A stretch of 45,217 bases of DNA from Opitutia bacterium UBA4654 (lineage in GTDB: Bacteria > Bacteroidota > Bacteroidia > Bacteroidales > Bacteroidaceae): assembly GCA_963658045.1 (NCBI GenBank), contig CAVKOT010000001.1:1-45217 (forward strand), in the 5' to 3' direction. The notes under the pieces were generated by a model. That model had not been told where the DNA came from, made no database searches, and was given only the letters and a program-made list of their open reading frames with translations. Shown here one piece after another: positions 1-16,993 of the stretch (position 1 is the stretch's first letter; every line of letters begins with the position of its first letter). Position numbers and translations under genes: made by a program.

Positions 1-52
1 TACTGCAAAGGTACGGAATTATTTTTAATTAGTGCGCTCTAAACGCCTATAC

Positions 53-1078
53 CTACTCACCAATTTCCGCGAAATCAGAAATCACGGCATTATCATATAC
101 TTCCGCATCTCCATATACCTGACAAGAATCACGCAATTCAGCACAACCTGTTATTTTGGAATTCTCAAACGTTCTTGAAAAACCGCCAATACTACACCCT
201 GCCTTACCATTACCAATGACTATCGAATTGCCATAAACCCTGGCATAATCGGTGACTCTAACATCCCCATCTATCAAGCACCCTCCATATATACGCGCGT
301 TTCCCGATATATTAGCACACCCTGTGACCACAGCATGCCCAAAGCAATGTACATTACCTCCAACCACAGCCTTGCCAGTCACTTTTGCCACACCACTTAT
401 TCGGGCATAACCACCAATTCGCACGCCACCATAAAGTTTTGCATTGCCACACACTTGCGCAACATCAGCAATCTCAGCGCATCCATAAACTTCTGCGCTA
501 TCACACACAATGGCATAACCACGAATAATTGCATCTCCGTGCACGCGACCCTCATCCACGACTCTGGCATATTCACATATCTGAGCATTTGCATAAACAT
601 CAGCGTTTCCATGCACACGCGCATAACCACTTACATGTGCCATTCCATGAATGGATGCCGTATCATACACGCATACATCCCCATATTCATCGCAAGAACA
701 ACGTCCATTCACCTTGGCCTCATCATATATTTCTGCCTCGCCAAATACTTGTGCACGGCCTGAAACCTGCGCTCGGTCGCGCACAACTGCATTTCCATAA
801 ACTTGCGCTTGGTCATATACTTTTGCCTCACCGCTTATACTCGCCTCATCTGACACACAAGCCCCACCGTACACGCGAGCATTTCCCGACACTTTAGCAT
901 TTCCATATACACAAGAGTCATCGAAGACCCAGGCCTTTTCGCTTAGGTTACTGGTGCTTTCGACAAAGCCCCCCACGCTACCCCTTTTTGCATAAGCGAA
1001 TGTGGCCATACACTTAATTCTATGAAGGACATGTCCCTCCACAATCTTTGTTTCGTCAGTTAGAATATAACTATCCAC
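53..1078 (-). CDS. Hexapeptide-repeat left-handed beta-helix protein (YdcK-like architecture), function unknown
   Basis: 341-aa ORF. After a ~55-aa head (YILTDETKIVEGHVLHRIK...GSVGGFVES) the protein is an essentially unbroken run of 6-residue repeats [GD]-x-A-x-[VI]-x (GNAKVS GNARVY GGACVS DEASIS GEAKVY DQAQVY GNAVVR ...). Head plus repeats resemble E. coli YdcK-type LbH proteins as I recall them. Confidence 0.7.
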   Translation of the reverse strand: MDSYILTDETKIVEGHVLHRIKCMATFAYAKRGSVGGFVESTSNLSEKAWVFDDSCVYGNAKVSGNARVYGGACVSDEASISGEAKVYDQAQVYGNAVVRDRAQVSGRAQVFGEAEIYDEAKVNGRCSCDEYGDVCVYDTASIHGMAHVSGYARVHGNADVYANAQICEYARVVDEGRVHGDAIIRGYAIVCDSAEVYGCAEIADVAQVCGNAKLYGGVRIGGYARISGVAKVTGKAVVGGNVHCFGHAVVTGCANISGNARIYGGCLIDGDVRVTDYARVYGNSIVIGNGKAGCSIGGFSRTFENSKITGCAELRDSCQVYGDAEVYDNAVISDFAEIGE

Positions 1079-1705
1079 TTTGTGTTCTCGTAATTTGTCA
1101 CTGCGGTAAACCGCATTTGTTATTATTGTTCAAAACACGCAAAAGGTCAATGTACATAACCTTTCTGTTATTTTAGGACGAATAGTGAACATATGCCCTA
1201 CGCCAACATCTCGGTCTGTATGACACCCAGTCCCCTTGGACAGTTCTCGGGCCATGCACGAAACGGGGTCACAGCGATTATACACATAGCCACTTACCCG
1301 GCTTGGACTTACCCCAGTTGCCTAACAGGCATGCCAATCATAGCAAGTACATCACGGTTGATGCCCCAGTGTGTGAACAGGCATATGGGAGAGGGCCTGC
1401 CCATAAGCGAATTCGCAAGACAATAAGCAGAACATACCATATGATAGTACCAATTCAGTAAAAAAGATACTTCATGATTTGAAATGACTTTCATATCGAC
1501 CACGCAATTAAATTATACCCTACAAATATACCCTTATCTTTTTGCATAACAAAACCATTTGGCATATTTGTTCCGAAAAGCATAAGACACAAATACCATA
1601 GATGTTCCAACTCAAAGGAAGAGCAAGGCAACAAGGGACATGAAGAGAAGCACCTTTCCAACCGCATTTGAAACAGCCGCCAGACTCCTGGCAAGGAACT
1701 CCCTC

Positions 1706-1799
1706 ACCGTCCAGCCCAAGGCTGGACGGTAGGAGAAGTTAACTTACCTTGCAAAGTCAGTATGCTTTCTTGCACCGTCCAGCCTTGGGCTGGACGGTG
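1706..1799. repeat. Pair of inverted copies of an 11-12 bp-stem hairpin (ACCGTCCAGCC-CAA-GGCTGGACGGT and its reverse complement)
   Basis: Hairpin 1 is at 1706-1730 and hairpin 2 at 1773-1799. Copy 2 is the exact reverse complement of copy 1 (loop CAA versus TTG). The flanks are also partly inverted (CTCCCTC / GAGGAG). Confidence 0.6.
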
Positions 1800-1886
1800 G
1801 AGGAGTGTTTCCGCCCCTGCCACCCTTGCTTCTTCATGCGCCTGGCAAGTACACTCCCTTCTCCACGGCAAGCATCATCCGTGTAT

Positions 1887-1952
1887 AAAATGGCCTTTAT
1901 TTGGCTACAGGATACCATTTCGGGGCACACGTAGCCAAATAAAGGCCATTTT
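1887..1952. repeat. Perfect 22-bp inverted repeat with a 22-nt spacer (A-tract / T-tract flanked, bidirectional-terminator-like)
   Basis: AAAATGGCCTTTATTTGGCTAC (1887-1908) and GTAGCCAAATAAAGGCCATTTT (1931-1952) are exact reverse complements. Confidence 0.7.
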
Positions 1953-2121
1953 GTATGCAGGCCGCTGGAAAAGCAATGAGTACTCCAGCATATTCCCATG
2001 TCAAGTCACACTGGAGGACTTGTTTACCTAAACAGGAAGTCCCAGCCACGCAGATGCACACAGCGAGGCCCGCATGCGCAATTTCATGGTGCATTATTGC
2101 ACACATCTCGCATAATCGTCC

Positions 2122-2129
2122 TACCTTTG
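2122..2129 (+). promoter_or_regulatory. Bacteroidota -7 promoter box (TACCTTTG)
   Basis: Matches TAnnTTTG, 38 nt upstream of the ATG at 2167. Confidence 0.5.
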
Positions 2130-2166
2130 CAGCCCGAAACGATATACACAAAGAAAGGATAGCATT

Positions 2167-2604
2167 ATGAGAAGAGTAATGAGCGTGCTTGTGTGCCTGC
2201 TGATGGCAGTAGCCAGCGTCATGGCGCAGAGTGACAAGATTGTGGGCAACTACCAGGTGGAACGCAATGGCGTGACGAGCAAGGTGAGGGTGTTCAAGCA
2301 TGAGGATGGCTACCGCGCACAGGTGACCTGGGTGAACAACCTGAAGAAGGAGGACGGCAGCCTGCGCACCGACGAGAAGAACCCCGACAAGAGCAAGCGA
2401 GGCGTGCGCGCCGACCAGATAGTGCTCATCGACAAGGTGACCTACGATGCCAAGGACAACGTGTGGACGGGCGGCAAAATCTATGACCCCACCAAGGGCA
2501 AGACCTATAAGGTGAAGTTGTGGTTTGACAGTGACAAGGTGCTCAAGATGCGCGGCTACATCGGTCCGCTCTATGACACCAGCACCTGGAAGAAGATTGA
2601 CTGA
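2167..2604 (+). CDS. DUF2147 domain-containing secreted protein
   Basis: 145 aa with a signal peptide (MRRVMSVLVCLLMAVASVMAQ). The motifs DEKNPDKSKR, GGKIYDPTKGKTYK and MRGYIG are characteristic of DUF2147 as I recall it. Confidence 0.8.
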   Translation: MRRVMSVLVCLLMAVASVMAQSDKIVGNYQVERNGVTSKVRVFKHEDGYRAQVTWVNNLKKEDGSLRTDEKNPDKSKRGVRADQIVLIDKVTYDAKDNVWTGGKIYDPTKGKTYKVKLWFDSDKVLKMRGYIGPLYDTSTWKKID

Positions 2605-2623
2605 ACGCATCCAGTTCTATATG

Positions 2624-2677
2624 GTGAAGGCCCAGACTGTTTGGCGCAGCCTGGGCCTTCACTGTATAGTTGTTTTT
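2624..2677 (+). terminator. Rho-independent terminator after the DUF2147 gene
   Basis: A perfect 12-bp stem, GTGAAGGCCCAG (2624-2635) / CTGGGCCTTCAC (2651-2662), is followed by TGTATAGTTGTTTTT. Confidence 0.6.
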
Positions 2678-2807
2678 GGCTTTCGTGGACAGCAATAAAT
2701 GAAAAGGAAAACCTACCAGGCATAAAGGACAGTCCCCTGTGATTCCCACAATACAATCCCTTATCTGCAATCCAAGACAGCACAAACAAAAAACGCTATA
2801 ATCCATA

Positions 2808-3548
2808 TTATAACAACTGATAGTTATATGCGTAAGTTATTGCCTCAACCATATTTCGAACCCTTAGTCGCTTGAATAACTTCTGCTTACATGTTTTGAT
2901 GGCATCCTTTGATTTACAGAGTTCAGAGGCGATATCCGGCACGGTAAGTCCTTGGCTTGCAAGAAAGATAATCTTACGTTCCATTTCCTTCAAAGCCACA
3001 CAACTACGCCTCGTCCATAAACGATTTCGGATATCATATTCATAGTATGCACTTTCTGAACTTTTCTTCATTCGAACATATCCAGAAGTATGTGCCGAAG
3101 ACTTGGACATCGCACACAGAACAAGACATGGCCTCCCAAACTCATCCACGTCAAGTGTTGTGAAAATATGATGAATCAGATGAGATTTCCCATTACTTGG
3201 ATTTTGAACACGAAAATCACAATGAAGAGAGAAGTCTGTCCTCTCTTCAAGCGGAAAATGCTGAAGCAAACCTAGACAAGCCTCACCTAACCCCCGAACC
3301 AGCCCCAAATCCTCCCATACAACACACCTTTCATAAAAGGAATACCCACTTTCTGCGACATCTTTCGCAGAACATCCGCACAAAAAATCAAAACTTCCAG
3401 ACACAAACGAAAACGTTTCTCTAACAAGATCTATTAGTATGATGCCTCGGCATGTACATCTTGAAAATGCCATTAGGGCCTTCACAAACGCATCCCGACG
3501 ACAGGACTCTAGCAAAGGAATGTCCTTCATCTGAAAATTATCGTACAT
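2808..3548 (-). CDS. LuxR/GerE-family HTH transcriptional regulator with an unassigned N-terminal sensor-like domain
   Basis: 246 aa. The C-terminal ~60 aa (ERKIIFLASQGLTVPDIASELCKSKDAIKTCKQKLFKRLRVRNMVEAITYA) form a LuxR-type HTH. It starts 11 nt downstream of the rSAM gene on the same strand. Confidence 0.8.
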   Translation of the reverse strand: MYDNFQMKDIPLLESCRRDAFVKALMAFSRCTCRGIILIDLVRETFSFVSGSFDFLCGCSAKDVAESGYSFYERCVVWEDLGLVRGLGEACLGLLQHFPLEERTDFSLHCDFRVQNPSNGKSHLIHHIFTTLDVDEFGRPCLVLCAMSKSSAHTSGYVRMKKSSESAYYEYDIRNRLWTRRSCVALKEMERKIIFLASQGLTVPDIASELCKSKDAIKTCKQKLFKRLRVRNMVEAITYAYNYQLL

Positions 3549-3558
3549 ATTTTTCTAC

Positions 3559-5115
3559 TCAATATTTCATTTCCGAACAGATTTCTGGCGCGAACTCACA
3601 TCTGGGGTCAGGATAGTCCCAGTTATCCCTGCCATACGCCTGTATCACTTTAACCACGCACTTCCGCTTATTCTCCTGACAAAAATCCAGCACTTTGCAT
3701 GATGAGCAACGACTTTCCTTGCGCGCGCCAAGCGTATGATTGTAAATAGACAGGGCTTTCGAGGAATTCCACACTTCACTTATGGATTGCTGGCGAAGGT
3801 CACCAATAAGGAATTGGGGATTCCAGTACATCAGTTCACAAATGCTCACCTTACCATCAGGAAGTACAAACATGCTGCTCAGTAATGCTCCGCACGCGCC
3901 ACCCTTAAAGCACTTCTCGTCACGCCCACCTTTATATACAGAATAATCCAACGCATTGTCACTAAGAAACAAAGTGAAGCAAGCCTTGGGCATTATCTGT
4001 TCCTGTACAAACGAGCGCAAGTTCTCTATAGAAGTTCTGTCCGCCTTTACTGAGACAAAAGAATCGGGAGTATAAAGAGAAAGTTCGGGCACACGAATTT
4101 CCCAGTAAGACAAATTCCTCAACGTGCCAATGTAAACAAACAAGTCGGACATCGTTTGTGTGTTGCAGTTATACTTTGTCAGGATGGTATCTATCTGTAT
4201 TTGGAAACCATATTTCTCCAGCAAGCCAATTGTCTTCTTCATCTGTTCCACATATCCCGACTTACTTCCGATAATCTGTGCGAGAACCTTGTCATCAAGA
4301 GAGTCAAGGGAAATCTGCACTACATTGTCATATCCCGTTTCCTTCAATGCCTTTATTTGTGACTCTGCCAAAGGCACCTTTGTGGATATATAACTGGGCA
4401 TCAGTTCGCAGTCCACGAGTTTCTTGATTATTTTTGCCCAGTCCCTGTGACAAAACACCTCTCCACCGATAATGTCAATGTGAGACATGTCCATTGCCCA
4501 TGCCTCATCAATGATACGGAATATCTCCTCGGTGGACAATGGCTTGTAACTTGTCTTCCGGTCTGCATAACAGTACCTGCAATTCGTCATGCACCGTGAA
4601 GTCAACATCAAAGTCATTGAGTGAGGACCTTTTAGTAAACGCCCTGCTTCCAAATTGAGTTCACGACAGGAGAAATTAACGCCTTCATTCCTGTTCCCCA
4701 AATACGCAATCTTTACCTTTTCATAAGGAAGCAGCACATTCTTCGGAAAGGAGATTCTTGTGTTTCCAAACTCTGTATATACAGCCTCTTCATTCTCTAT
4801 ATATTGTCCAATCATCTTATCAACCTGGGCAGGAGACAAATGAAATTTGGACTTCAAATCCTCATAATGCCAGGACATTGGATATGGTTTGACAAAAGAA
4901 AAGAGAATCTGTGCCTGTACAGGATGGACATAACTCACCCATCCCTTTGCACTATATGGTTGTACCCTATTAGTGGAATACAAAATCATCCTGTGGACAT
5001 CATTTTTGAAATAGTAGTCCGGGTTCAAAATATAAATCTGCGTATCAACCATTACCTTACTTACTAAATATTGAGAAAAGGGTGCCCCATAATAAATATG
5101 GGACACCCATACCAC
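3559..5115 (-). CDS. Radical SAM / SPASM-domain peptide maturase (alternative start at 5052, MVDTQIYILNPDYYF)
   Basis: The CX3CX2C motif occurs in LTSRCMTNCRYCYADR. The Cys-rich C-terminus (CFKGGAC ... CSSCKVLDFC...C ... CEFAPEIC) is SPASM-like. A ~150-aa N-terminal extension precedes the rSAM core and is a candidate leader-recognition domain. The gene lies immediately downstream of the small GG-leader ORF. Confidence 0.9.
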   Translation of the reverse strand: MVWVSHIYYGAPFSQYLVSKVMVDTQIYILNPDYYFKNDVHRMILYSTNRVQPYSAKGWVSYVHPVQAQILFSFVKPYPMSWHYEDLKSKFHLSPAQVDKMIGQYIENEEAVYTEFGNTRISFPKNVLLPYEKVKIAYLGNRNEGVNFSCRELNLEAGRLLKGPHSMTLMLTSRCMTNCRYCYADRKTSYKPLSTEEIFRIIDEAWAMDMSHIDIIGGEVFCHRDWAKIIKKLVDCELMPSYISTKVPLAESQIKALKETGYDNVVQISLDSLDDKVLAQIIGSKSGYVEQMKKTIGLLEKYGFQIQIDTILTKYNCNTQTMSDLFVYIGTLRNLSYWEIRVPELSLYTPDSFVSVKADRTSIENLRSFVQEQIMPKACFTLFLSDNALDYSVYKGGRDEKCFKGGACGALLSSMFVLPDGKVSICELMYWNPQFLIGDLRQQSISEVWNSSKALSIYNHTLGARKESRCSSCKVLDFCQENKRKCVVKVIQAYGRDNWDYPDPRCEFAPEICSEMKY

Positions 5116-5131
5116 TGTCCAGAACGTGGCA

Positions 5132-5347
5132 TCAAGGATTCTTCCCTGAATCAGGCTTAGGTTTCAGTGGCTTTGTACCAATAGCTTCCGTCCCATTGCA
5201 GATGACAAGGGCTGGTGTTCCATTGCATGAAATCGCAGGAGAACCATTACATACAATATCTCCTTCTGAACTTCCGCCTTTCACCTCCATCAATTCCATG
5301 ATATCAAGCGGTTCACCAAAGGCGAGAAGAGTCTTTTTTGTATCCAT
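5132..5347 (-). CDS. RiPP precursor peptide, double-glycine leader, core with three CNG[ST] repeats
   Basis: 71 aa. The leader is MDTKKTLLAFGEPLDIMELMEVKGG (L..EL..VKGG). The core is SSEGDIV-CNGSPAIS-CNGTPALVI-CNGTEAIG-TKPLKPKPDSGKNP. It is 16 nt upstream of the rSAM ORF, and a C39 ABC exporter is in the locus. Confidence 0.75.
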   Translation of the reverse strand: MDTKKTLLAFGEPLDIMELMEVKGGSSEGDIVCNGSPAISCNGTPALVICNGTEAIGTKPLKPKPDSGKNP

Positions 5348-5508
5348 AACGCCTATACTATATTAGTTTCTGCTTCCATGTCAGCGTGTCAGCGTGCGCT
5401 CCTTTTATACAGTATGGTCTGTGAAGCCTGTGATTCGCCTGTCACATTCTTCCCTCCCCTGCTGAGGCGAAAGCCCTACAAATTGTGGAGCACAACAGAG
5501 AAGCATCA

Positions 5509-5516
5509 CAAAATTA
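5509..5516 (-). promoter_or_regulatory. Candidate -7 box (TAATTTTG on the minus strand) for the precursor-rSAM-LuxR operon
   Basis: This is the only TAnnTTTG match on the minus strand in the 5348-5719 intergenic region. It implies a ~150-nt leader. Confidence 0.3.
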
Positions 5517-5652
5517 AAAAGTTTCCAAATTACCACGGCAAGAGAAGGCCGACTTTTCATCACACATTATGTTTTTTCACCCTTTTGGGTGTTATTACAA
5601 AATCTTCTCCACAAACAACACATTTCACAACCATAATACGCAAAAGATACCT

Positions 5653-5660
5653 TAACTTTG
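5653..5660 (+). promoter_or_regulatory. Bacteroidota -7 promoter box (TAACTTTG) for the OMP-ABC operon
   Basis: TAnnTTTG match 60 nt upstream of the ATG at 5720. Confidence 0.45.
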
Positions 5661-5719
5661 CTGCACATTTCTCCCAAAACAGGATTGGGTCACACTGCAA
5701 CAATAATAAATGAGCGAAA

Positions 5720-8041
5720 ATGGGAAAAAAAAGAAACCTTCTTTTAATTATATTCACTTGCGCAACGCTATTCGCCCAAGGCCAGAACCTCAAGGGCAGA
5801 GTAAGCGCAGAGGACGGAAAGCCCCTGGAGTATGTGAGTGTGGCCCTGCTGTCAGCCAAGGACTCCACCGTGATTACGGGCTGTGCCACACAGGCCGACG
5901 GAACGTGGACGATAATGGCAGACGGCAGCAAGGGCGTGCTGCTGAAGGTGAGCATGATGGGATATGAGACACGGTACTTTCAGGAGCCATTCCCCAAGAA
6001 CATCACTCTGAAGGAGAACGCCTCGACCATGAAGGAGGCACAGGTGACAGGGACACGCAAGTATGTCAAGGCCAACCCGCGGGGCTTTACCGTGCAGATG
6101 GAGGGAAACCCGCTGGGCCAACTGCCCTCGTCACTGGACGCGCTCAGGGAGATGCCGCTGATAGAGGGCACGGGAACAAACCTCACGGTACTGGGACGCG
6201 AGGGTACGCCTGTCATATACATTGAGCACCGGAAGGTGCAGGACATGACGGAGGTGCAGACTCTGAACCCATCCGAAATCAAGAGTGTGGAGATTATCAC
6301 CCACCCCGGCCCGAAATATGGCAAGGAGGTGACATCGGTCATCATCATCCATCTCAAGCGCAAAAGCCCCGGGCTGGCAGGATATGTGTCGGGCACAGGC
6401 TCGGTGGCAGAGAGGCTCTCGGGCTATGCCTACACCAATCTGTCATACACCTTCCTCAATGGGACAAGCCTCTATGCTGATGCCAATGGGAGCAGCAGCG
6501 GATACAAGATGAAGAATTCATTCTCAGACAAATATGCGCCAGAGAATGTCTCATCATCAACCAGCGGGACAAACGTGGGACGCAGCAAGAACTTCGATGT
6601 GACCGCAGGCGGAAGCCATGACTTCAAGAAAGGGCACTCCGTGGGAGCCAGGTACTCCTACACCCGCACGCCCTCGTCCATCGCGACGGTCAGTGCTCAC
6701 AACCTATCGACCAACAGCCTGGCCACCACGCTGATGGACACGCACACACGCACCAGCATGCAGAGCTGGAGACACTATGCCAATGCCTACTCTTACCTGA
6801 AACTGAGCAAACCGCTCTCGCTCACCATCAATGCCGACTACCTGCGGGGCAACTCGCCCACACACACGGCCATCACGGAACAGGCTGACGAGGATGAGCC
6901 CTGGCTGATGAGCACCAGCAACCTGAAGGACTACAAGATGGCTGCGGCAAAGGCCGACCTGGACGGCACCTGGAAAAGGTGGACACTACAGACGGGAGTG
7001 GAATACTCCTACACCCGGAACAACCTGGACTTCACAGGCACGGCAAGCAACGGCATCAAGCCCTTCCAGTCATCAGAGGACCAGGAACAGCAGAACCTGT
7101 ATGCCGTGTATGGCACTGCCACCTGCCAGATGAACGAGCACTGGGCATTCACGGGCGGGCTCAGGTGCGAGGTGACGGACTTTGACTACCACAGAAACCA
7201 CGAGAGGCAGGATGGGCTATCAAAGAACTACGCCGACTGGCTGCCCGAACTGGGGATAAACTATATGCACAAGGGCATGACGCTGGGACTCACCTACAAC
7301 AGCACGGCCTACCGCCCCACCTACAGCGACCTCAACAACAACTACACCTACATCACGCACACGTCCTGGGCCACAGGAAACCCGCTGCTGAAGAGCAACA
7401 TCATCAGAAACCTGGAGGCAAGCCTCGCGTGGAAGCAGACATACGTGTCACTCACCTACTGCCGACGCTTCAGGAACTTCCAGACCATATACCGATACCT
7501 GCCCGAAAGCCAGGTGAACCTGCGCCAGAACATCAACCTGCCTGGCTTCAATGACTTCCGGCTGGTAGTGTCACAGAGTTTCGATGTGAAGTGGTGGCAT
7601 CCATCCCTACAGGGCCTGCTGATGCTGGAGGACCTGGAGTATGGCGAGGAGGGGTGGAAACGCTCTTATAAGAAACCCTTCTTCCAGTTGACCACCAAGA
7701 ACCGCATAGACCTCCCCTGGAAGATATATGCCTGGGTGGGAGCCACCTGGAGGGGACGTGGCAATGTGACCACCGTCTATTATGACAGGCACAACTTCTC
7801 GGCCTACCTGCAGATGAGCAAGAGCATCAAGGACTGGAGCCTGTCAATGACCGTCAACGACTTCACCCACACCAACCGCCTCAGATACCGGATCGACTCC
7901 AATGGTGTAGCCTACGCCAGCAGCCAGAAGGGCGGCATCTGCATGCTCCAACTCTCGGCCACCTATATGTTCAACTATAAGAACAAGAGGGAGTACAAGG
8001 GCAAGGGCGCAGCCAGCAATGAGTTGAACCGTCTGAACTAA
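5720..8041 (+). CDS. Outer-membrane beta-barrel protein, TonB-dependent-receptor-like (CarboxypepD_reg N-domain plus plug-like region plus barrel)
   Basis: 773 aa with a signal peptide. The N-terminus (LKGRVSAEDGKPLEYVSVALLSAKDSTVITGCATQADGTW) is typical of the carboxypeptidase-regulatory-like domain. A long region of beta-strand-like alternating Y/T/S-rich sequence follows. The gene ends 12 nt before the ABC exporter. Confidence 0.8.
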   Translation: MGKKRNLLLIIFTCATLFAQGQNLKGRVSAEDGKPLEYVSVALLSAKDSTVITGCATQADGTWTIMADGSKGVLLKVSMMGYETRYFQEPFPKNITLKENASTMKEAQVTGTRKYVKANPRGFTVQMEGNPLGQLPSSLDALREMPLIEGTGTNLTVLGREGTPVIYIEHRKVQDMTEVQTLNPSEIKSVEIITHPGPKYGKEVTSVIIIHLKRKSPGLAGYVSGTGSVAERLSGYAYTNLSYTFLNGTSLYADANGSSSGYKMKNSFSDKYAPENVSSSTSGTNVGRSKNFDVTAGGSHDFKKGHSVGARYSYTRTPSSIATVSAHNLSTNSLATTLMDTHTRTSMQSWRHYANAYSYLKLSKPLSLTINADYLRGNSPTHTAITEQADEDEPWLMSTSNLKDYKMAAAKADLDGTWKRWTLQTGVEYSYTRNNLDFTGTASNGIKPFQSSEDQEQQNLYAVYGTATCQMNEHWAFTGGLRCEVTDFDYHRNHERQDGLSKNYADWLPELGINYMHKGMTLGLTYNSTAYRPTYSDLNNNYTYITHTSWATGNPLLKSNIIRNLEASLAWKQTYVSLTYCRRFRNFQTIYRYLPESQVNLRQNINLPGFNDFRLVVSQSFDVKWWHPSLQGLLMLEDLEYGEEGWKRSYKKPFFQLTTKNRIDLPWKIYAWVGATWRGRGNVTTVYYDRHNFSAYLQMSKSIKDWSLSMTVNDFTHTNRLRYRIDSNGVAYASSQKGGICMLQLSATYMFNYKNKREYKGKGAASNELNRLN

Positions 8042-8053
8042 GCGACGGGACTT

Positions 8054-10273
8054 ATGCCACTCCTAATGCCAGCATTCCCCTTCTGCCCACAGCATGACAG
8101 CATGCAGTGTGGGGCTGCCTGCCTGCAGATGCTGTGCCTGTACTATGGCAGGCGATATACGCTGGAGTACCTGAGTAACGCCTGCGCAGCAACCAGCGAG
8201 GGGGTCTCCCTCTATGGGTTGATGTCAGTGGCAGGACAGTTAGGCTTTGACACCCGGTGTGTGAAAGCGACGCTGGAAGAGGTGTCCCAGGCCACACTAC
8301 CCTGTATCCTGCACTGGAACCAAAATCACTTTGTGGTCCTGTACAGAATCAAGAAAGGCCACAAGTTCTACATCGCCGACCCTGGCAAGGGACTTATGAC
8401 CTACGACACCGAGGACTTTCTGAGCCATTGGGCCAGCATCCCGAACGTTGACAGACAGGAGTCCAGAGGCATCGCCATGCTGTTGCTACCCACCCGGGAT
8501 TTCTACAGCCAGGCAGAAGGACAAGGCAAGGCAGGGGGTGAGACACACTCCTTCCGCTTCCTGTTTGGATACATACACCGGTACAGAGGCTATTTCGGAC
8601 ATATTGCCCTGGGGCTGACCGTTGGCATAGGCATACAGTTGGCCTTGCCACTTCTCACCCAGTCCATTGTGGACGTGGGCATCAAGAACCAGGACATAGG
8701 TTTTGTCTGGCTAATCCTGCTGGGGCAGTTTGTACTCACCCTCAGTGGCACCATCTTCGACTTCATACGTCGCTGGCTCCTGCTGCACATCAGCCTGCGC
8801 ATCGACCTCTCGCTGGTGAGTGACTTCTTCATCAAGTTGCTCAGTCTGCCCATGCCTTTCTTCGACACCAAGCAGATGGGTGATCTGATACAGCGTATGG
8901 GTGACCATGACCGCGTGAATAACTTCCTCACCCAGCAAACCCTAAGCATCACCTTCTCAGCACTCACATTCTCGGTATTCTCGTCACTGCTGCTCTACTA
9001 TAGCGGCATGGTGTTCCTCATATTCCTGCTGGGCAGCATCCTCTATGCCTGCTGGATGACCCTCTTCATGCACCGGCGCAAAGTGCTGGACTATGAGTTT
9101 TTTGAGAAGCAGGCCGTATGCAGCAACAAGACCTATGAACTCATCACCTCCATGCAGGAGATAAAGCTCCAGGGCGGAGAAAACCAGCATCGCTGGGACT
9201 GGGAAGACACCCGGGTCGAACTCTCGACAGTGCAGACCAAGTCGCTGAAACTGCAACAGACACAGGAGGCGGGCAACGTCTTCATCAATGAGGTGAAGAA
9301 CATGCTACTCACAGTGGTGGCCGCCACAGCGGTAATCAACGGCCACATGACCCTGGGCATGATGCTGGCAGTGCAATATATCATAGGACAACTGAATGCT
9401 CCCGTGGAACAACTGATGTCCTTCCTGTATTCTGTCCAGGATGTCAGCATCAGCCTGGAACGCATCAACGAGATTCACCGCATGGACGGCGAGGACAGTG
9501 AACAGGGGTTGCAAACGTCTGTGGCCGACGAAAGCCAGGGCATCACGCTGCAAAATGTGTCATTCAGGTATGACAAGTTTGCACAGCACGACATCATTGA
9601 CCAGGTGAGCATCCACATCCCCAAAGGCAAGGTGACTGCCATTGTGGGGGCGTCGGGAAGCGGGAAAAGCACGCTGGTAAAGCTCATGCTGGGCTACTAC
9701 CCCACCAGGGAGGGCACGATAAGCATAGGCGGAACAGACATCAGACAGCTCAACAAGGAGTGGTGGCGGCACCAGTGCGGGGTAGTCATGCAGGATGGTG
9801 CCATCTTCTCTGACACCATAGCCAGGAATATTGCCGTGGGAGAGGGAGAGATTGACAGGCAGCGACTGATGGAGGTCACCGAGATGGCCTGCATCAAAGA
9901 GCATATTGTGTCACTGCCACTGAAGTTTGGCACAAAGATAGGGCGTGACGGAATGGGGCTCAGCCAGGGACAGCGGCAGCGCATTCTCATCGCCCGCGCT
10001 GCCTATCATAACCCCCAATACATCTTCCTTGACGAGGCCACTAACTCGCTCGATGCCAACAACGAGCGCAGGATAGTAGAGAACCTGGACACCTTCTATA
10101 AGGGGAAGACGGTGGTCATCGTGGCTCACCGCCTAAGCACCGTAAGGAACGCCGACCAAATAATCGTGCTTGAGCAAGGCAGAGTGGCCGAGGCCGGCAC
10201 GCACAAGGAGCTCACCCAAAAGCGTGGAGCATACTATCAACTGGTAAAGAACCAACTGGAACTGGGCAACTGA
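8054..10273 (+). CDS. Peptidase C39 domain-containing ABC transporter (double-glycine leader peptide processing/export)
   Basis: 739 aa. The N-terminus FPFCPQHDSMQCGAACLQMLCLYYGRRYTLEYL carries the C39 catalytic Cys context. Six TM segments follow. Walker A is GASGSGKST, the ABC signature is LSQGQRQR and Walker B is IFLDEATN. Confidence 0.92.
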   Translation: MPLLMPAFPFCPQHDSMQCGAACLQMLCLYYGRRYTLEYLSNACAATSEGVSLYGLMSVAGQLGFDTRCVKATLEEVSQATLPCILHWNQNHFVVLYRIKKGHKFYIADPGKGLMTYDTEDFLSHWASIPNVDRQESRGIAMLLLPTRDFYSQAEGQGKAGGETHSFRFLFGYIHRYRGYFGHIALGLTVGIGIQLALPLLTQSIVDVGIKNQDIGFVWLILLGQFVLTLSGTIFDFIRRWLLLHISLRIDLSLVSDFFIKLLSLPMPFFDTKQMGDLIQRMGDHDRVNNFLTQQTLSITFSALTFSVFSSLLLYYSGMVFLIFLLGSILYACWMTLFMHRRKVLDYEFFEKQAVCSNKTYELITSMQEIKLQGGENQHRWDWEDTRVELSTVQTKSLKLQQTQEAGNVFINEVKNMLLTVVAATAVINGHMTLGMMLAVQYIIGQLNAPVEQLMSFLYSVQDVSISLERINEIHRMDGEDSEQGLQTSVADESQGITLQNVSFRYDKFAQHDIIDQVSIHIPKGKVTAIVGASGSGKSTLVKLMLGYYPTREGTISIGGTDIRQLNKEWWRHQCGVVMQDGAIFSDTIARNIAVGEGEIDRQRLMEVTEMACIKEHIVSLPLKFGTKIGRDGMGLSQGQRQRILIARAAYHNPQYIFLDEATNSLDANNERRIVENLDTFYKGKTVVIVAHRLSTVRNADQIIVLEQGRVAEAGTHKELTQKRGAYYQLVKNQLELGN

Positions 10274-10274
10274 C

Positions 10275-10451
10275 ATGAACAGAGAAACACATCCAAGAGA
10301 GGGGCAGGATAACCTGGACTTGCGCAGCGAGAAGGCCCGCCGCTTTATCAGACAGAAGCCCTCCCGCCTGGTGCTCATGGGCACCTGGGCCATGACATTG
10401 GTCATCCTGGCACTGTCGCTGGCCTTCTATGCCATGCGCTTCAGGCTGTGA
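10275..10451 (+). pseudogene. 58-codon ORF resembling only the N-terminal TM anchor of a HlyD-family periplasmic adaptor (probable truncated remnant)
   Basis: The ATG is 1 nt after the ABC stop. The translation is MNRETHPREGQDNLDLRSEKARRFIRQKPSRLVLMGTWAMTLVILALSLAFYAMRFRL. The motif L-x-LRSE...P...G followed by a single TM helix matches the start of Bacteroidota HlyD adaptors as I recall them. The ORF then stops, 42 nt before the convergent xth gene. Confidence 0.45.
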
Positions 10452-10493
10452 GCCAGGAGGAAAGCATGCCTGCCCGATTGAACTGGCATCCCC

Positions 10494-11246
10494 TTACTCC
10501 AGCACCAGCTCCACAGGGCAGTGGTCGCTGCCCATGACATCCGTCAGGATGTTGGCCTCACGCACCCGGGGAAGCATGCGCTGCGAGACGAGGAAGTAGT
10601 CGATGCGCCAGCCAGTGTTCTTCTCGCGGGCATGGAAGCGGTAGCTCCACCAGGAGTAGATGCCCTCCTGGGTGGGATGCAGGTGACGGAAGGTGTCGGC
10701 GAAGCCCGCCTCCAGCAGCGTGGTCATCTTGGCACGCTCCTCGTCGGTGAAGCCTGCGTTCTGGCGGTTGGTCTTGGGATTCTTGAGGTCAATCTCCTCA
10801 TGTGCCACATTCATGTCACCACACACCACCACGGGCTTTTTCCTGTCCAGGGCCATGAGGTAGGCCCGGAAGTCATCCTCCCAGCGCATGCGGTAGTCCA
10901 GCCGGCGCAGTCCGTCCTGGCTGTTGGGGGTATAGACACACACGAGGTGGAAGTCCTCCATCTCCAGCGTGATGACCCTGCCCTCATGGTCATGCTCGTC
11001 GATGCCCATGCCATAGGTGACAGCGATGGGCTCAAGGCGGCTGTAGATGGCCGTCCCGCTGTAGCCCTTCCGGTCGGCATAGTTCCACCAGGAGTGGTAG
11101 CCAGGGAACTCCAGGTCAAGTTGCCCCGCCTGCATCTTGGTCTCCTGCAGGCAGAAGAAGTCAGCGTCAAGCGACTGGAAGACTTCACGGAAGTTCTTCC
11201 CCACCACGGCCCGCAGGCCATTCACATTCCAACTTATCAGTTTCAT
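10494..11246 (-). CDS. xth: Exodeoxyribonuclease III
   Basis: 250 aa. [33 protein letters not shown] and SDHCPV are hallmarks of the EEP-family Xth/APE1 nucleases. Confidence 0.95.
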
Positions 11247-11252
11247 GTTTCC

Positions 11253-11404
11253 TTGAGGTTTTGAGGTTATAAGGTTTTGAGGTTATAAGGTTGTATGCTT
11301 CCTGGTCTTCGGACTTTCGCCCATACAGCTGTACGAGTCACAGCCATAGGGCTCCTTTCCCCAAAAGACCTAAAAACCTCACAACCCTAAAACCTCATAA
11401 CCTT
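11253..11404 (-). repeat. Leader cassette of xth: (AGGTTnnn)x4 - 80-nt spacer - (AACCTnnn)x5 - ATG (read on the minus strand)
   Basis: On the plus strand there are 8-bp-period units TTGAGGTT TTGAGGTT ATAAGGTT TTGAGGTT ATAAGGTT (11253-11292) and AAAACCTC ACAACCCT AAAACCTC ATAACCTT (11373-11404). On the minus strand the AACCT array ends 6 nt before the xth ATG. Confidence 0.7.
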
Positions 11405-11408
11405 AGTA

Positions 11409-11416
11409 CAAAGATA
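11409..11416 (-). promoter_or_regulatory. Bacteroidota -7 promoter box (TATCTTTG on the minus strand) for xth
   Basis: The plus strand reads CAAAGATA. It sits immediately upstream of the repeat cassette, so the whole cassette would be 5' UTR. Confidence 0.45.
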
Positions 11417-11555
11417 GCCATTCCTGCCGACCTGGCAAAGTTCTGGGCCCGGCACAATGACTTTTCGGTGCAATCACTTTGCCAGGAGCACAAGTTTTCC
11501 TACCTTCGCACAGATTTGCGGTGCTGTCACCCTTGGACAGGTGAGGGCACGCTGA

Positions 11556-12503
11556 ATGCCACTAAGACAAGGACTCATGAACATCATACTGAAACTGCTG
11601 CGCGCACTCGCCGACCTGCCATCGAGCATGAGGCGCACCCCACACCCACGCCTCATCATGACCCTGCTGGTGAAGAACGAGGCCGACGTGCTGGAGCAGA
11701 ACATCCTCTTCCACAAGGCCATGGGCGTGGACGGGTTCATCATCACCGACAATGCGTCCACCGACTCCACCCCCGCCATCATCGAGAAATATGTGCGGCG
11801 GGGATGGGTGCTGGAGAGCATCCACGAGCCTGCCAGCGGATATGAGCAGAAGAGGTGGGTGGACCGCATGGTGTGGATGGCCAAGACGCGCTACCGGGCC
11901 GACTGGGTCATCAATGCCGATGCCGATGAGTTCTGGTTCCCAGCCACTGGCAACCTGAAGTCAGAGCCCTCGGTGACGCATGCCAATGTGCTGGCCGCCG
12001 AGGTGCGGAACGTCTGTCCCGAGGAGGGGAAGCCCTACCAGGAATGGACATGCACCATACGCGAGGTGCCCGACCTGCAGGAATATGGCCTCTCACCCTA
12101 CAGTATCTTCTCACGGCATTACAAGAAGGTGATGCACCGCACGGATGGCTACCTGCAAATCTCCATGGGCAACCACAAGGTGACGATGCTGCCACACCGC
12201 GAGAGGCGCAGCGGGATTGTGGTCTATCACTACCCCATGCGTGGACGCGAGCACTTCATGCACAAGATGATAAACGGTGGAAAGCAACTGGAGACCCACC
12301 GGGGAAAGCATGGCGGGCGGCACTGGCGCTACTTCTATGCGCTCTACCAGGAGGGCAGGCTCAGCGAGGAGTATGACCGGGTGGTGGGGCTGAACTGCCG
12401 CCAGCGTCTCCTGAGGGACGGCTACATTGTGAGGGACAATCGGCTGGGACGGCTCTTTGCCCCACAGACAGCCTCTGACATCCCAGGAGCAGACAGGCCG
12501 TAA
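11556..12503 (+). CDS. Glycosyltransferase family 2-like protein (alternative start at 11577)
   Basis: 315 aa. LIMTLLVKNEADVLEQNILFHKAMGVDGFIITDNASTDSTPAIIEKY followed by ADADEFW is a GT-A/GT2-like (Glyco_tranf_2_4-type) signature. Confidence 0.7.
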   Translation: MPLRQGLMNIILKLLRALADLPSSMRRTPHPRLIMTLLVKNEADVLEQNILFHKAMGVDGFIITDNASTDSTPAIIEKYVRRGWVLESIHEPASGYEQKRWVDRMVWMAKTRYRADWVINADADEFWFPATGNLKSEPSVTHANVLAAEVRNVCPEEGKPYQEWTCTIREVPDLQEYGLSPYSIFSRHYKKVMHRTDGYLQISMGNHKVTMLPHRERRSGIVVYHYPMRGREHFMHKMINGGKQLETHRGKHGGRHWRYFYALYQEGRLSEEYDRVVGLNCRQRLLRDGYIVRDNRLGRLFAPQTASDIPGADRP

Positions 12504-12918
12504 CGACACGCCCACTCCTTTCGACATTGAGCGGCATTTCCCCATAGCATTTCTATATGTGGCATCAAGGCCAGGAAGGACTGAGTTGGAAGGAATAGTT
12601 GGGAGCGACAAGCGGATGGGATAAGACAGCCCAGCGAGCACGAGGAAGAGTTTTTGCCGAAGGCAGGTTTTTGTTCTGCTGGCTCCTGGCACGAAGCGTC
12701 AGGGGGATGGACGGGAGGGACTTCAGAGCCAGCCAAGGTGTTTTCCCTGTTTTGGTCAAGGAGCCCCGGAAAAAAGGCAGTAATACTGCGATGGCCAAGC
12801 AAGCGCCTTGCGAGACCCAAGTAAGTACTACTGCGACGGCAAAGTAAGCACCTTGCGTTTGATTTCCTAAAAGATTTCAATTTCCAGCACTTGCCTTTGC
12901 CATATCGGGGGAAACATG

Positions 12919-12926
12919 TAACTTTG
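12919..12926 (+). promoter_or_regulatory. Bacteroidota -7 promoter box (TAACTTTG) for the etfBA-acd operon
   Basis: TAnnTTTG match 56 nt upstream of the etfB ATG. Confidence 0.5.
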
Positions 12927-12981
12927 CACGGTTTTACCATAAATGTGCAATTCATTACATACATCATATAATATATAAAGT

Positions 12982-13869
12982 ATGAGCTTAAAGATTGTAG
13001 TACTTGCCAAGCAAGTGCCCGACACGCGCAACGTGGGTCCCGATGCCATGACTCCTGAAGGCACCGTGAACCGCAGCGCACTGCCTGCCATCTTCAATCC
13101 CGAGGATTTGAACGCGCTGGAGCAGGCCCTCAGACTGAAAGACCAGAACCCCGGAACCACAGTGACTGTCATCACCATGGGCCCCGGACGCGCAGCAGAA
13201 GTCATCCGCGAGGCCATGTACCGTGGTGCCGACGATGGCTACCTGCTTACTGACCGTGCCTTTGCCGGTGCCGACACGCTGGCCACCAGTTATGCCCTGG
13301 CCACTGCCATCAAGCATGTGCAGCCCGATGTGGACCTCATCATCGGCGGCCGACAGGCCATCGACGGCGACACAGCACAGGTGGGCCCCCAGGTGGCAGA
13401 GAAGCTGGGACTGAACCAGATTACCTACACCGAGGAGATTCTCGCCTGTGAGAACGGGACCATACGCGTGAAGCGTCACATCGATGGTGGCGTGGAGACG
13501 GTGGAGAGTGCCCTCCCCTGCGTGCTCACGGTGAACGGGAGCGCGGCTCCCTGTCGCCCACGCAACGTGAAGCGGGTGATGAAGTACAAGCGTGCCAAGG
13601 CTCCCATGGAACTGCCACAGGGCACCACATGGGCCGACCAGCCCTATGCAGCACAGTATGACCAGAAGCCCTACCTGAAACTGGGGCAACTCAACTGTGC
13701 CGACGTGAATGCCGACCTGCAGCAGTGCGGACTGGCAGGATCGCCCACCAAGGTGAAGAACGTGGAGAACATCGTGTTCAAGGCCAAGGAGAGCAAGGTG
13801 CTCACTGGCAGCGACGAGGACATTAACGCACTGGTACAGGAACTCCTGGCCAACCACACTATCGGATAA
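12982..13869 (+). CDS. etfB: Electron transfer flavoprotein subunit beta
   Basis: 295 aa. The N-terminus MSLKIVVLAKQVPDT is the classical EtfB start. It is followed by etfA. Confidence 0.93.
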   Translation: MSLKIVVLAKQVPDTRNVGPDAMTPEGTVNRSALPAIFNPEDLNALEQALRLKDQNPGTTVTVITMGPGRAAEVIREAMYRGADDGYLLTDRAFAGADTLATSYALATAIKHVQPDVDLIIGGRQAIDGDTAQVGPQVAEKLGLNQITYTEEILACENGTIRVKRHIDGGVETVESALPCVLTVNGSAAPCRPRNVKRVMKYKRAKAPMELPQGTTWADQPYAAQYDQKPYLKLGQLNCADVNADLQQCGLAGSPTKVKNVENIVFKAKESKVLTGSDEDINALVQELLANHTIG

Positions 13870-13887
13870 AGAGGAGGAAAGGACACT

Positions 13888-14910
13888 ATGAACAACGTAT
13901 TCGTATATTGCGAGATAGAGGGCACCAAGGTGGCCGAGGTGAGCCAGGAACTGCTCACCAAGGGGCGCAAACTGGCCGACACACTGGGCGTGCAACTGGA
14001 GGCCATAGCCGCAGGAAGCGGTATCACAGGAGAGGTAGAGAAGCAAATCCTGCCCTATGGGGTGGACCGCCTGCACATCTTCGATGCTCCCGGACTGGCT
14101 CCCTACACCTCAAAGCCCCACACGGCTGTGCTGGTGAACCTGTTCAGGCAGGAGCAGCCACAGATATGCCTGATGGGTGCCGATGTGGTGGGACGTGACC
14201 TGGGCCCGCGCGTGAGCTCGGCCCTGCACAGCGGACTGACTGCCGACTGCACAGCCCTGGAGATTGGCCCCCATGATGACAAGAAACTGGGCAAGCACTA
14301 TGACAACCTGCTCTACCAGATTCGTCCTGCCTTTGGCGGCAACATCGTGGCCACCATCGTCAACCCCGAGAACCGCCCCCAGATGGCCACTGTGCGCAGT
14401 GGCGTGATGAAGGCCGAGGTGCTGGACGACAACTACCAGGGCGAGGTCATCATCGAGGATGTGGCCAAGTATGTGCCCGAGGCTGAGTATGTGACCCACG
14501 TGCTGGACCGCCATGTGGAGGCCGCAAAGAACAACCTGAAGGGTGCTCCCATCATCGTGGCCGGCGGCTATGGCGTGGGCTCACGCGAGGGATTTGGCCT
14601 GCTCTACGAACTGGCTCATGTCCTGCATGCCGAGGTGGGCGCAAGCCGTGCGGCTGTGGATGCGGGCTTCTGTGACCATGACCTGCAGATCGGGCAGACG
14701 GGAGTGACCGTGCGCCCCAAGGTATATATCGCCTGTGGCATCAGTGGAGCCATCCAGCATGTGGCCGGCATGAAGGAGAGCGGCATCATCATCAGCATCA
14801 ACAATGACGAGAACGCGCCCATCAACCAGATAGCCGACTATGTCATCAATGGCACGGTGGAGGAAGTGTTGCCCAAACTGATTAAGTATTACAAACAGAA
14901 TAGCAAGTAA
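13888..14910 (+). CDS. etfA: Electron transfer flavoprotein subunit alpha
   Basis: 340 aa. The C-terminal FAD-binding region (IVAGGYGVGS..., QIGQTGVTVRPKVYIACGISGAIQHVAGM) is typical of EtfA. Confidence 0.93.
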   Translation: MNNVFVYCEIEGTKVAEVSQELLTKGRKLADTLGVQLEAIAAGSGITGEVEKQILPYGVDRLHIFDAPGLAPYTSKPHTAVLVNLFRQEQPQICLMGADVVGRDLGPRVSSALHSGLTADCTALEIGPHDDKKLGKHYDNLLYQIRPAFGGNIVATIVNPENRPQMATVRSGVMKAEVLDDNYQGEVIIEDVAKYVPEAEYVTHVLDRHVEAAKNNLKGAPIIVAGGYGVGSREGFGLLYELAHVLHAEVGASRAAVDAGFCDHDLQIGQTGVTVRPKVYIACGISGAIQHVAGMKESGIIISINNDENAPINQIADYVINGTVEEVLPKLIKYYKQNSK

Positions 14911-15015
14911 GGTTTAATACAGGTTATAAGGTTTTTAGGTTATTAGGCCGTGAGGTTTCGCAGGAGACACACGTCCAGAACCTTAAAACCTTAAAACCTC
15001 AGAACCTCAAAACCT
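14910..15015 (+). repeat. Intercistronic cassette (AGGTTnnn)x6 - 21-nt spacer - (AACCTnnn)x5 - ATG upstream of the acyl-CoA dehydrogenase gene
   Basis: AGGTT (one AGGCC variant) occurs at 14910, 14921, 14929, 14937, 14945 and 14953. AACCT occurs at 14979, 14987, 14995, 15003 and 15011, an exact 8-bp period. The array ends 7 nt (15016-15022) before the ATG at 15023. The last two units (AACCTCAAAACCTCAA) are identical to those upstream of xth. Confidence 0.7.
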
Positions 15016-15022
15016 CAAAGAA

Positions 15023-16738: not shown

Positions 16739-16766
16739 TGCAGCAGGTCTGACAACAGGACACACA

Positions 16767-16802
16767 GACAAAGGGGAGCCCCTCAGAAGGTTCCCCTTTG
16801 TC
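16767..16802 (+). terminator. Strong hairpin after the acyl-CoA dehydrogenase gene (no clear U-tract)
   Basis: GACAAAGGGGAGCC (16767-16780) pairs with GGTTCCCCTTTGTC (16789-16802), including one G-U pair, with an 8-nt loop. The downstream sequence is ATATCC, so this is not a canonical intrinsic terminator. Confidence 0.35.
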
Positions 16803-16993
16803 ATATCCGCCCGCCCTGTCACCCCCTCCCCCACTGGCATTGAGCCCACAGGACACGGCTCGCCATGCCCGCTTGTCCCACCCAGGACAGCAGGCGTGAA
16901 AGGATATTAAAACTATAAGGAAAAGGCCTGGAAGATTAAACCACACGACCGGGTGGGAGTCAGACTTTCGGACACAAGAACATCACGACACCA

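Follow-up and report, generated by a model that had tools for sequence, protein, structure and literature searches.

Sactipeptide and ranthipeptide gene clusters (subtilosin/AlbA, SkfB, thermocellin/CteB, freyrasin/PapB, NxxC/NxxcB and StsB) place a small Cys-rich precursor gene beside a maturase that combines an RRE, a radical-SAM (rSAM) core and a SPASM domain with seven cysteines. Double-glycine (GG) leader bacteriocins and microcins carry the leader consensus L-12/E-8/L-7/V-4/GG and are exported by a C39-peptidase ABC transporter (PCAT) with Cys, His and Asp catalytic residues. In Bacteroidetes, the GG-Bacteroidales system defined by the NCBIfam model TIGR04149 likewise joins a GG-leader peptide to a radical SAM enzyme. 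Methanobactin and siderophore loci combine a maker, an exporter and a receptor that resembles the TonB-dependent transporters (TBDTs). A further cluster, Phocaeicola vulgatus ‘BGC2’, is described by genome mining only (Fernandez-Cantos et al. 2023, PMC10352776).

We identified a five-gene cluster that resembles each of these systems in part within a 45,217-nucleotide stretch of Bacteroidales DNA (hereafter, the window). A RiPP precursor gene of 71 codons (5132–5347, minus strand) was assigned from its translation and from homologous small ORFs upstream of rSAM homologues. The gene for a 497-aa peptide maturase (3559–5052, minus strand) starts 79 nt downstream of the precursor gene on the same strand. 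It is followed, again on the same strand, by a gene for a 246-aa GerE/LuxR-type HTH regulator (2808–3548) whose N-terminal domain is unassigned; the regulator was assigned from a domain match and from orthologues beside related clusters (adjoining them in L085, L002, L004, L008 and L086). Genes for a TBDT-like outer-membrane protein (OMP; 5720–8041, plus strand) and a PCAT (8054–10273, plus strand) are transcribed divergently from these three. The order precursor, rSAM, TBDT-like OMP, PCAT is kept in about 20 of 28 clade loci, and the window has the same genes in a divergent arrangement. Our preferred explanation, which we hold with somewhat better than even confidence, is that the small ORF is the precursor of an rSAM-modified RiPP with one thioether per repeat unit, export through the C39 transporter and possible re-uptake.

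The whole translation of the precursor gene, MDTKKTLLAFGEPLDIMELMEVKGGSSEGDIVCNGSPAISCNGTPALVICNGTEAIGTKPLKPKPDSGKNP, divides into a leader, MDTKKTLLAFGEPLDIMELMEVKGG (residues 1–25, 5273–5347, minus strand), and a core, SSEGDIVCNGSPAISCNGTPALVICNGTEAIGTKPLKPKPDSGKNP (residues 26–71, 5135–5272, minus strand), which is followed by the stop codon. The core contains three Cys-headed repeats, starting on the minus strand at 5251, 5227 and 5200, and a Pro-rich tail, TKPLKPKPDSGKNP. A sequence-only reading of this DNA had reported Cys33, Cys41 and Cys50, each followed by N-G-[ST]; the translation agrees exactly, and the strand, which had been left unstated, is minus. We defined GG leaders as 15–30 residues long, with hydrophobic residues at -12, -7 and -4, an acidic residue at -8 and Gly-Gly at -2/-1. 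The window leader fits this consensus, with L14 (-12), E18 (-8), L19 (-7), V22 (-4) and G24 and G25 (-2/-1), and E18, V22, K23 and the GG pair are conserved at 90% or more in an alignment of clade leaders. No second precursor was found in the window.

The PCAT was assigned from its Pfam domains (Peptidase_C39, 117 bits, with ABC_membrane and ABC_tran) and from its orthologues in clade loci. C39 catalytic residues are in place in the motifs MQCGAAC (Cys), NHFVVLY (His) and IADPGKG (Asp), and orthologues that are 52–75% identical lie downstream of the rSAM gene in most clade loci. Leader and exporter thus match those of GG-leader bacteriocins and microcins. The window cluster differs from these systems in having a dedicated rSAM maturase and in lacking both an MFP/TolC partner and a recognisable immunity gene.

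The maturase matches the Pfam models for Radical_SAM (74 bits) and SPASM (PF13186, 44.5 bits). Its SAM-cluster motif CX3CX2C reads CMTNCRYC, and C154, C158 and C161 are invariant in 21 of 21 sequences. Exactly seven SPASM cysteines are invariant across the same sequences (C387, C405, C449, C452, C458, C465 and C485). Their spacing is C387-x12-G400-x4-C405, C449-x2-C452-x5-C458-x6-C465 and C485, in which the final x6 stands against a canonical x3. The sole additional Cys, C381, is present in 11 of the 21 sequences. Seven is the canonical SPASM number, and as no eighth cysteine is invariant, an auxiliary cluster may have one open site. Such a site, on auxiliary cluster I, is ligated in CteB by the Cys of the substrate.

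An AF2 model of the maturase (pLDDT 87) places three strands and three helices within residues 1–85, ahead of the rSAM barrel, in an RRE-like layout. The model's best Foldseek matches are full-length SuiB, SkfB, PqqE and CteB, then anSME and TigE; SuiB, SkfB and CteB bear an RRE. A search for the PqqD Pfam model in the maturase gave no match even at E<=10.

At the sequence level, the maturase is about equally distant from thioether, C–C and other SPASM enzymes. Its PDB profile matches are all distant (MoaA, PqqE, SkfB, SuiB and anSME). It also falls below every cutoff of the curated NCBIfam models, the best being PqqE with 77 bits against 381. CteB-type ranthisynthases are not sequence matches at E<=1e-3, and the fold match to CteB (TMq 0.44) is weaker than those to SuiB, SkfB and PqqE. 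Although its predicted architecture resembles that of the sactipeptide and ranthipeptide enzymes, the maturase is not a sequence member of their families.

The precursor, too, departs from these families. The cysteines of freyrasin-type (PapB) substrates lie in Cys-X3-Asp/Glu motifs, while position +4 in the window is Pro, Pro and Glu and in the clade mostly Gly, Ser, Ala or Pro. NxxC-type (NxxcB) substrates have Asn at -3, where the window has Asp, Ala and Leu; here Asn directly follows each Cys. In place of a Cys-X3-Asp, NxxC or nested hairpin pattern, the repeat is 8–10 residues long with a small-small-aliphatic end. The sequence-only reading had called the periodicity unlike that of known thioether RiPPs, and it does differ from the freyrasin, NxxC and hairpin-type sactipeptide patterns. 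We know of no characterised thioether RiPP with the repeat design of the window. That each repeat is self-contained points to local rings, like those of freyrasin. Further differences from sactipeptides and ranthipeptides are the Gram-negative Bacteroidales host, the double-glycine leader, the Pro-rich tail and the TBDT-like gene. Judged from its predicted enzyme and core, the window peptide nevertheless falls within the radical-SAM/SPASM Cys-peptide kind.

Among the Bacteroidetes systems, TIGR04149 matches the leaders of 5 of 23 clade precursors weakly (best E 0.0048). The window peptide has no match at E<=10, and the maturase, with PqqE as its best model, has no TIGR04148-type model among its best 25 matches. 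No pseudo-rSAM partner was seen among ORFs of at least 120 aa in positions 1–12000 of the window. The precursor of BGC2 (...LDLNELMDVQGG IDDKELSKCGLGCYTGG...; PMC10352776) is identical to an ORF that we find upstream of an rSAM homologue in locus L036, and BGC2 shares the GG leader, PCAT and OMP with the window cluster. BGC2 represents a sister subfamily, with an rSAM enzyme about 34% identical, a single CGLGC[YF] motif in the core, and MFP and TPR proteins present.

The TBDT-like OMP (PF13620, PF00593 and PF14905) was assigned from these domains, from fold matches and from synteny. It comprises a carboxypeptidase-regulatory-like N-terminal domain, a TonB-box-like EAQVTG box, a plug-like region and a beta-barrel. 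An AF2 model (pLDDT 80) contains a mixed alpha/beta region at residues 115–215 before the barrel, and its best Foldseek matches, over about 700–790 columns, are the full-length TonB-dependent transporters FepA, PfeA, Cir, FoxA and PhuR. Sequence searches returned no Pfam Plug match and no PDB match, and the fold comparison alone was informative.

Searching with the OMP also led to two contigs, L109 and L110, from near relatives; their flanks are 82–94% identical to the window at the DNA level. Both lack window positions 3726–5365, with the entire precursor gene and the first 440 or so codons of the rSAM gene, and positions 8097–10498, with everything in the PCAT gene from its codon 15 on. Between the two deletions, the OMP is intact (87% identity). 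The rSAM remnant in L109 consists of the last 57 codons only. A third contig (L111) is without the rSAM and precursor genes and matches the PCAT in two frames. The deletions are precise (L109 7430–7604 and 10354–10423; L110; L111), and GerE in L109 appears frameshifted. The joint loss in L109 and L110 links the precursor and rSAM genes with the PCAT. That the TBDT-like gene is retained after loss of the makers hints at a role in uptake, as seen in two or three lineages. A receptor kept after loss of biosynthesis (L109/L110) is, with the joint presence of maker, exporter and TBDT-like receptor, what the cluster has in common with methanobactin and siderophore loci; it contains no MbnBC-type enzyme, and the analogy is one of layout only.

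The receptor-like gene bears on an alternative in which the rSAM enzyme modifies Cys without forming a thioether, yielding a thiooxazole-type heterocycle or an oxidised Cys, and the product is a peptide for metal binding or signalling that re-enters the cell via the TBDT-like receptor, on the model of methanobactin or siderophore loci. This alternative would fit the full TBDT-like fold, the conservation of the gene between the rSAM and PCAT genes, and its intact retention in relatives without precursor, rSAM and PCAT, although that retention rests on two or three lineages. Enzyme similarity is also compatible with it: across the full rSAM+SPASM region the thio(seleno)oxazole maturase SbtM scores 46 bits, on a par with StsB (45 bits) and AlbA (42 bits), and anSME is among both the sequence and the fold matches. 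The core, however, is without His or other typical metal ligands. Moreover, Cys-rich SPASM substrates most commonly end up with a thioether (PMC10288494). We consider a non-thioether modification unlikely, while giving it real weight.

We identified 1035 proteins of the maturase family at E<=1e-10, distributed across Bacteroidales. Loci were recovered from genomes (80, nearly all Bacteroidales), from metagenomes (23) and from the contigs of the closest enzymes (4). The closest maturase relatives, 59–66% identical, came from the protein search and its contigs, and a metagenome scan with the maturase returned no relative closer than 51%. Core type follows enzyme subfamily. Enzymes with 41–66% identity to the window maturase are accompanied by cores with 2–6 Cys spaced 8–10 residues apart, those with 34–39% identity by cores with a single CGLGC[YF] motif, and those with about 29–36% identity by other multi-Cys types. 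Across these core types (Cys-x7-9 repeats, CGLGC[YF] and other multi-Cys), the one shared feature is Cys.

Within the clade, cores consist of 2–6 Cys-headed units of 8–10 residues, each with a small-small-aliphatic segment after the Cys. Conservation in these units follows C-[TSN]-[VGA]-x-[GSPA]-[SA]-[GA]-[VI], and a stricter form, C-x(2,4)-[SGAPT][AG][VIL], occurs in 49 of 76 repeats, compared with 5.2 +/- 2.1 in shuffled cores. A variable number of repeats (2–6) is what would be expected of an iterative enzyme that acts once per repeat. The proposal in the sequence-only reading of an iterative, Cys-centred maturase gains support from this context, in which Cys is universal and repeat number modular. 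Odd Cys counts are frequent (9 of 25 cores have three), and this speaks against simple disulfide pairing. The conserved aliphatic residue lies anywhere from +4 to +7 relative to its Cys, and because there is an aliphatic residue ahead of the first Cys as well, the direction of any link is ambiguous.

Several observations on these loci concern neighbouring genes. First, the two loci with the closest enzymes contain, ahead of the main precursor, a second and longer GG-leader ORF of 93–97 aa whose multi-Cys core is rich in Lys and Arg (L002, 5145–5426; L082, 873–1166); it is without counterpart in the window. Second, upstream of the precursor (L003, L006, L007, L013, L014, L015, L021 and L010), many Prevotella, Segatella and Bacteroides loci encode a secreted protein of about 117–125 aa ending in ...G.Y.......Y.G.F.I, and some also carry a 111–118-aa LuxR-type HTH protein; neither is present in the window. 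Finally, distant archaeal rSAM homologues with 27–28% identity (L078 and L080; Methanothrix / Methanotrichaceae) are preceded by pairs of 64–67-aa peptides that end in CEKGC(S/T)TCTSCSSCS and have no GG leader.

The regularity of the aliphatic segment raises a second alternative, namely that the enzyme acts on aliphatic or small residues (by L-to-D epimerisation as in epipeptides, or by a C–C link) and that Cys remains free or in a disulfide. There is precedent in radical SAM peptide epimerases such as EpeE, and, Cys apart, nothing in the repeats is as regular as the [AG][VIL] dipeptide. Sister-subfamily cores (CGLGC[YF], CFCHNTSSC, CWSCRSDCKTC) nevertheless lack this dipeptide and always contain Cys. 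The frequent odd Cys numbers and the potentially open auxiliary-cluster site left by seven SPASM cysteines also count against this alternative, and we regard it as improbable.

Asn-Gly, the pair that follows each Cys in the window, had been proposed in the sequence-only reading as a possible acceptor or recognition turn, and conservation of C-N-G-[ST] had been set as a check. The comparison does not bear this out. The motif occurs in none of the other repeats at 24 related loci and is absent from all six frames of every other fetched locus. Homologous loci had been expected to retain both the CNG motif and the small ORF. For the ORF, a regular expression for GG/GA-leader small ORFs upstream of rSAM genes returned at least one candidate in 64 of 83 loci scanned, a few of them evident false positives. 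The closest relative of the same architecture, L085, has the core CKATPAIA-CSGSPAIVL-CTTGQAIK-PSKPDPGEKPDL, with no Asn-Gly. Other cores read CFLKSAVK-CSNGPAVVN-CSGVPAL-PTEPKPGDKV (L002), CIFKAAVK-CEGETPAVVT-CSGAPA-TPTKPNPGDKA (L082) and CPVFSSAVK-CAVEGSGVFV-CSVQGSGVV-PPKDPNPGEKF (L083). Position +1 is Thr, Ser or Asn in 42 of 59 non-first repeats, and also Pro, Ala, Glu or Lys.

A version of the thioether chemistry in which Cys-Asn beta-thioethers form, or Asn-Gly serves as a turn, would have some precedent: NxxcB and SycC chemistry is known to use the C-beta of Asn as acceptor (PMC10989515), and Asn is among the residues preferred at +1. Against it, the known Asn acceptors lie three residues before Cys instead of directly after it, the tolerance of Pro, Ala, Glu and Lys at +1 is hard to accommodate, and Asn-Gly is missing from every related core, including those beside enzymes 59–66% identical. 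We give it very little credence. On the evidence of the aligned cores, the Asn-Gly of the window appears to be a lineage-specific filling of loosely constrained +1/+2 positions ([TSN][VGA]), not an acceptor, and CNG[ST] is peculiar to the window genome among the loci compared.

Spontaneous deamidation and the formation of isoaspartate happen most readily at Asn-Gly pairs. The peptide contains three such pairs (N34-G35, N42-G43 and N51-G52; 5189–5251), and their deamidation could diversify or age the mature product. The cationic tail, suggested in the earlier reading to target the mature peptide to the membrane or envelope, is conserved as a Pro-rich sequence instead. Most clade cores end Pro-rich, with tail net charges from -5 to +3, of which the window tail is an extreme; the window core as a whole has a net charge of 0.

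Codon usage is consistent with translation of the peptide. All three CNG[ST] tetrapeptides among 90,430 six-frame residues of the 45-kb window lie in the precursor, which indicates that the repeat motif is not due to chance. Identical repeat residues are encoded by differing synonymous codons (TGT/TGC/TGC, GGT/GGA/GGG, CCT/CCA and GCG/GCC/GCT), and the best DNA-level repeat is 73% over 22 nt. Recent DNA duplication as the origin of the repeats is ruled out by these two observations, and the repeats appear from their codons to be maintained at the protein level. Comparison with the closest precursor, L085, reveals synonymous differences at 19 of 41 identical residues, a pattern that selection on a translated gene would be expected to leave. 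The same 71-aa ORF was annotated on a Logan contig by an independent gene caller.

Database searches with the peptide yielded little: Pfam and NCBIfam models gave zero matches, and a set of 5.8 billion proteins returned only the peptide itself, because small ORFs are poorly represented there. That lack of family matches and the single database copy would suit a chance frame or an unmodified class II-type bacteriocin beside an unrelated rSAM gene, a reading that is barely credible given the synonymous-codon pattern, the recurrence of leader ORFs beside rSAM homologues in dozens of loci, the joint deletion of precursor and rSAM in L109 and L110, and the RRE-like domain of the enzyme. The 71-aa ORF is a genuine RiPP precursor.

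The arrangement of the locus suggests how its genes may be regulated. Between the precursor stop and the rSAM start lies a hairpin with a U-run (5080–5108, minus strand) that has a 12-bp stem with 7 GC, a folding energy of -30.1 kcal/mol and a z of -4.2. Hairpins of unrelated sequence are equally placed in L002, L083, L012, L003 and L015 and, in weaker form, in L082. The hairpin is probably a partial (leaky) terminator or an mRNA-stabilising element that sets the precursor-to-enzyme ratio. The divergent intergenic (promoter) region (5348–5719) contains a sigma-70-like match (5384–5357, minus strand) and a perfect tandem repeat, TGTCAGCG TGTCAGCG, at 5379–5394, 32 nt upstream of the precursor ATG. 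This tandem overlaps the -35 element of the sigma-70-like match, persists in altered form at the L109 deletion junction, and could be a regulator site. Farther upstream, about 160 nt from the precursor start, is TAATTTTG (5509–5516, minus strand), which we take to be a fit to the Bacteroides -7 promoter motif TAnnTTTG.

The cluster is also divided by GC content at third codon positions (GC3), with precursor (0.35), rSAM (0.49) and GerE (0.37) on one side and OMP (0.77) and PCAT (0.73) on the other. The five genes downstream of the PCAT (10494–20002) range from 0.74 to 0.86, and the DUF2147 gene on the other side has 0.83. A YdcK-like beta-solenoid repeat protein of 341 aa (53–1078, minus strand) has a GC3 of 0.35, equal to that of the low-GC precursor/rSAM cassette. 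Simple recent horizontal transfer is insufficient to account for this cassette, because all five cluster genes diverge about equally between loci and L085 shows the same GC3 split.

According to the predicted domains and the clade comparison, the neighbouring rSAM enzyme most likely cross-links the precursor at its three cysteines, and the reaction is most likely one thioether per repeat. In the mechanism that we propose, the RRE-like domain would dock the leader and the maturase would act once per Cys-headed unit. Within the conserved [SA]-[AG]-[VIL] segment (here P/E-A-I/L), 4–7 residues after the Cys, one residue would lose a hydrogen to the enzyme and become bonded to the sulfur of that Cys, which the first auxiliary cluster would hold in place. 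The outcome would be three small thioether rings in tandem, with a mass change of -6 Da. The C39 domain would then cut after Gly25, and the ABC exporter would move the 46-residue product over the inner membrane. For the TBDT-like protein, re-uptake of the product (or of a complex) seems more likely than export. The GerE regulator may govern expression of the operon, and the hairpin downstream of the precursor would keep precursor mRNA in excess over enzyme mRNA. Small acceptors (Gly/Ala) have a precedent in the Cys-Gly sactionines of StsA (PMC10288494).

Several findings weaken this explanation. The maturase falls below all NCBIfam cutoffs, CteB is not a sequence match and the Cys-to-aliphatic offset is variable. 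The absence of an MFP or TolC-type gene from the cluster also counts against it, at the step of the outer-membrane route.

Large and associated with the gut, this family is unexplored, and its receptor-like component is unusual. It is abundant in dominant gut Bacteroidales, including Segatella copri, Bacteroides, Phocaeicola, Parabacteroides and Muribaculaceae. The literature searched yielded no experimental work on the maturase family and no isolated product. With three nearly identical repeats, the window peptide would serve conveniently as a test substrate, though it is unrepresentative in its Asn-Gly. If the bond type were solved for a single member, the chemistry of a thousand or more clusters would be defined. 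Tentatively, and as a possibility that we would not count on, the family may constitute a Bacteroidales RiPP class with its own rSAM/SPASM lineage, combining a string of small Cys-anchored rings or a non-thioether Cys modification with a polyproline-like tail, in clusters centred on a TBDT-like receptor in place of an MFP/TolC export duct, whose product is a re-imported signal or metal carrier and not a bacteriocin. If this is true, strains of the L109/L110 type would be natural non-producers that are still able to take up the product as a shareable good. Whether the TBDT-like gene imports the product would tell whether these peptides are weapons, signals or shared gut resources.
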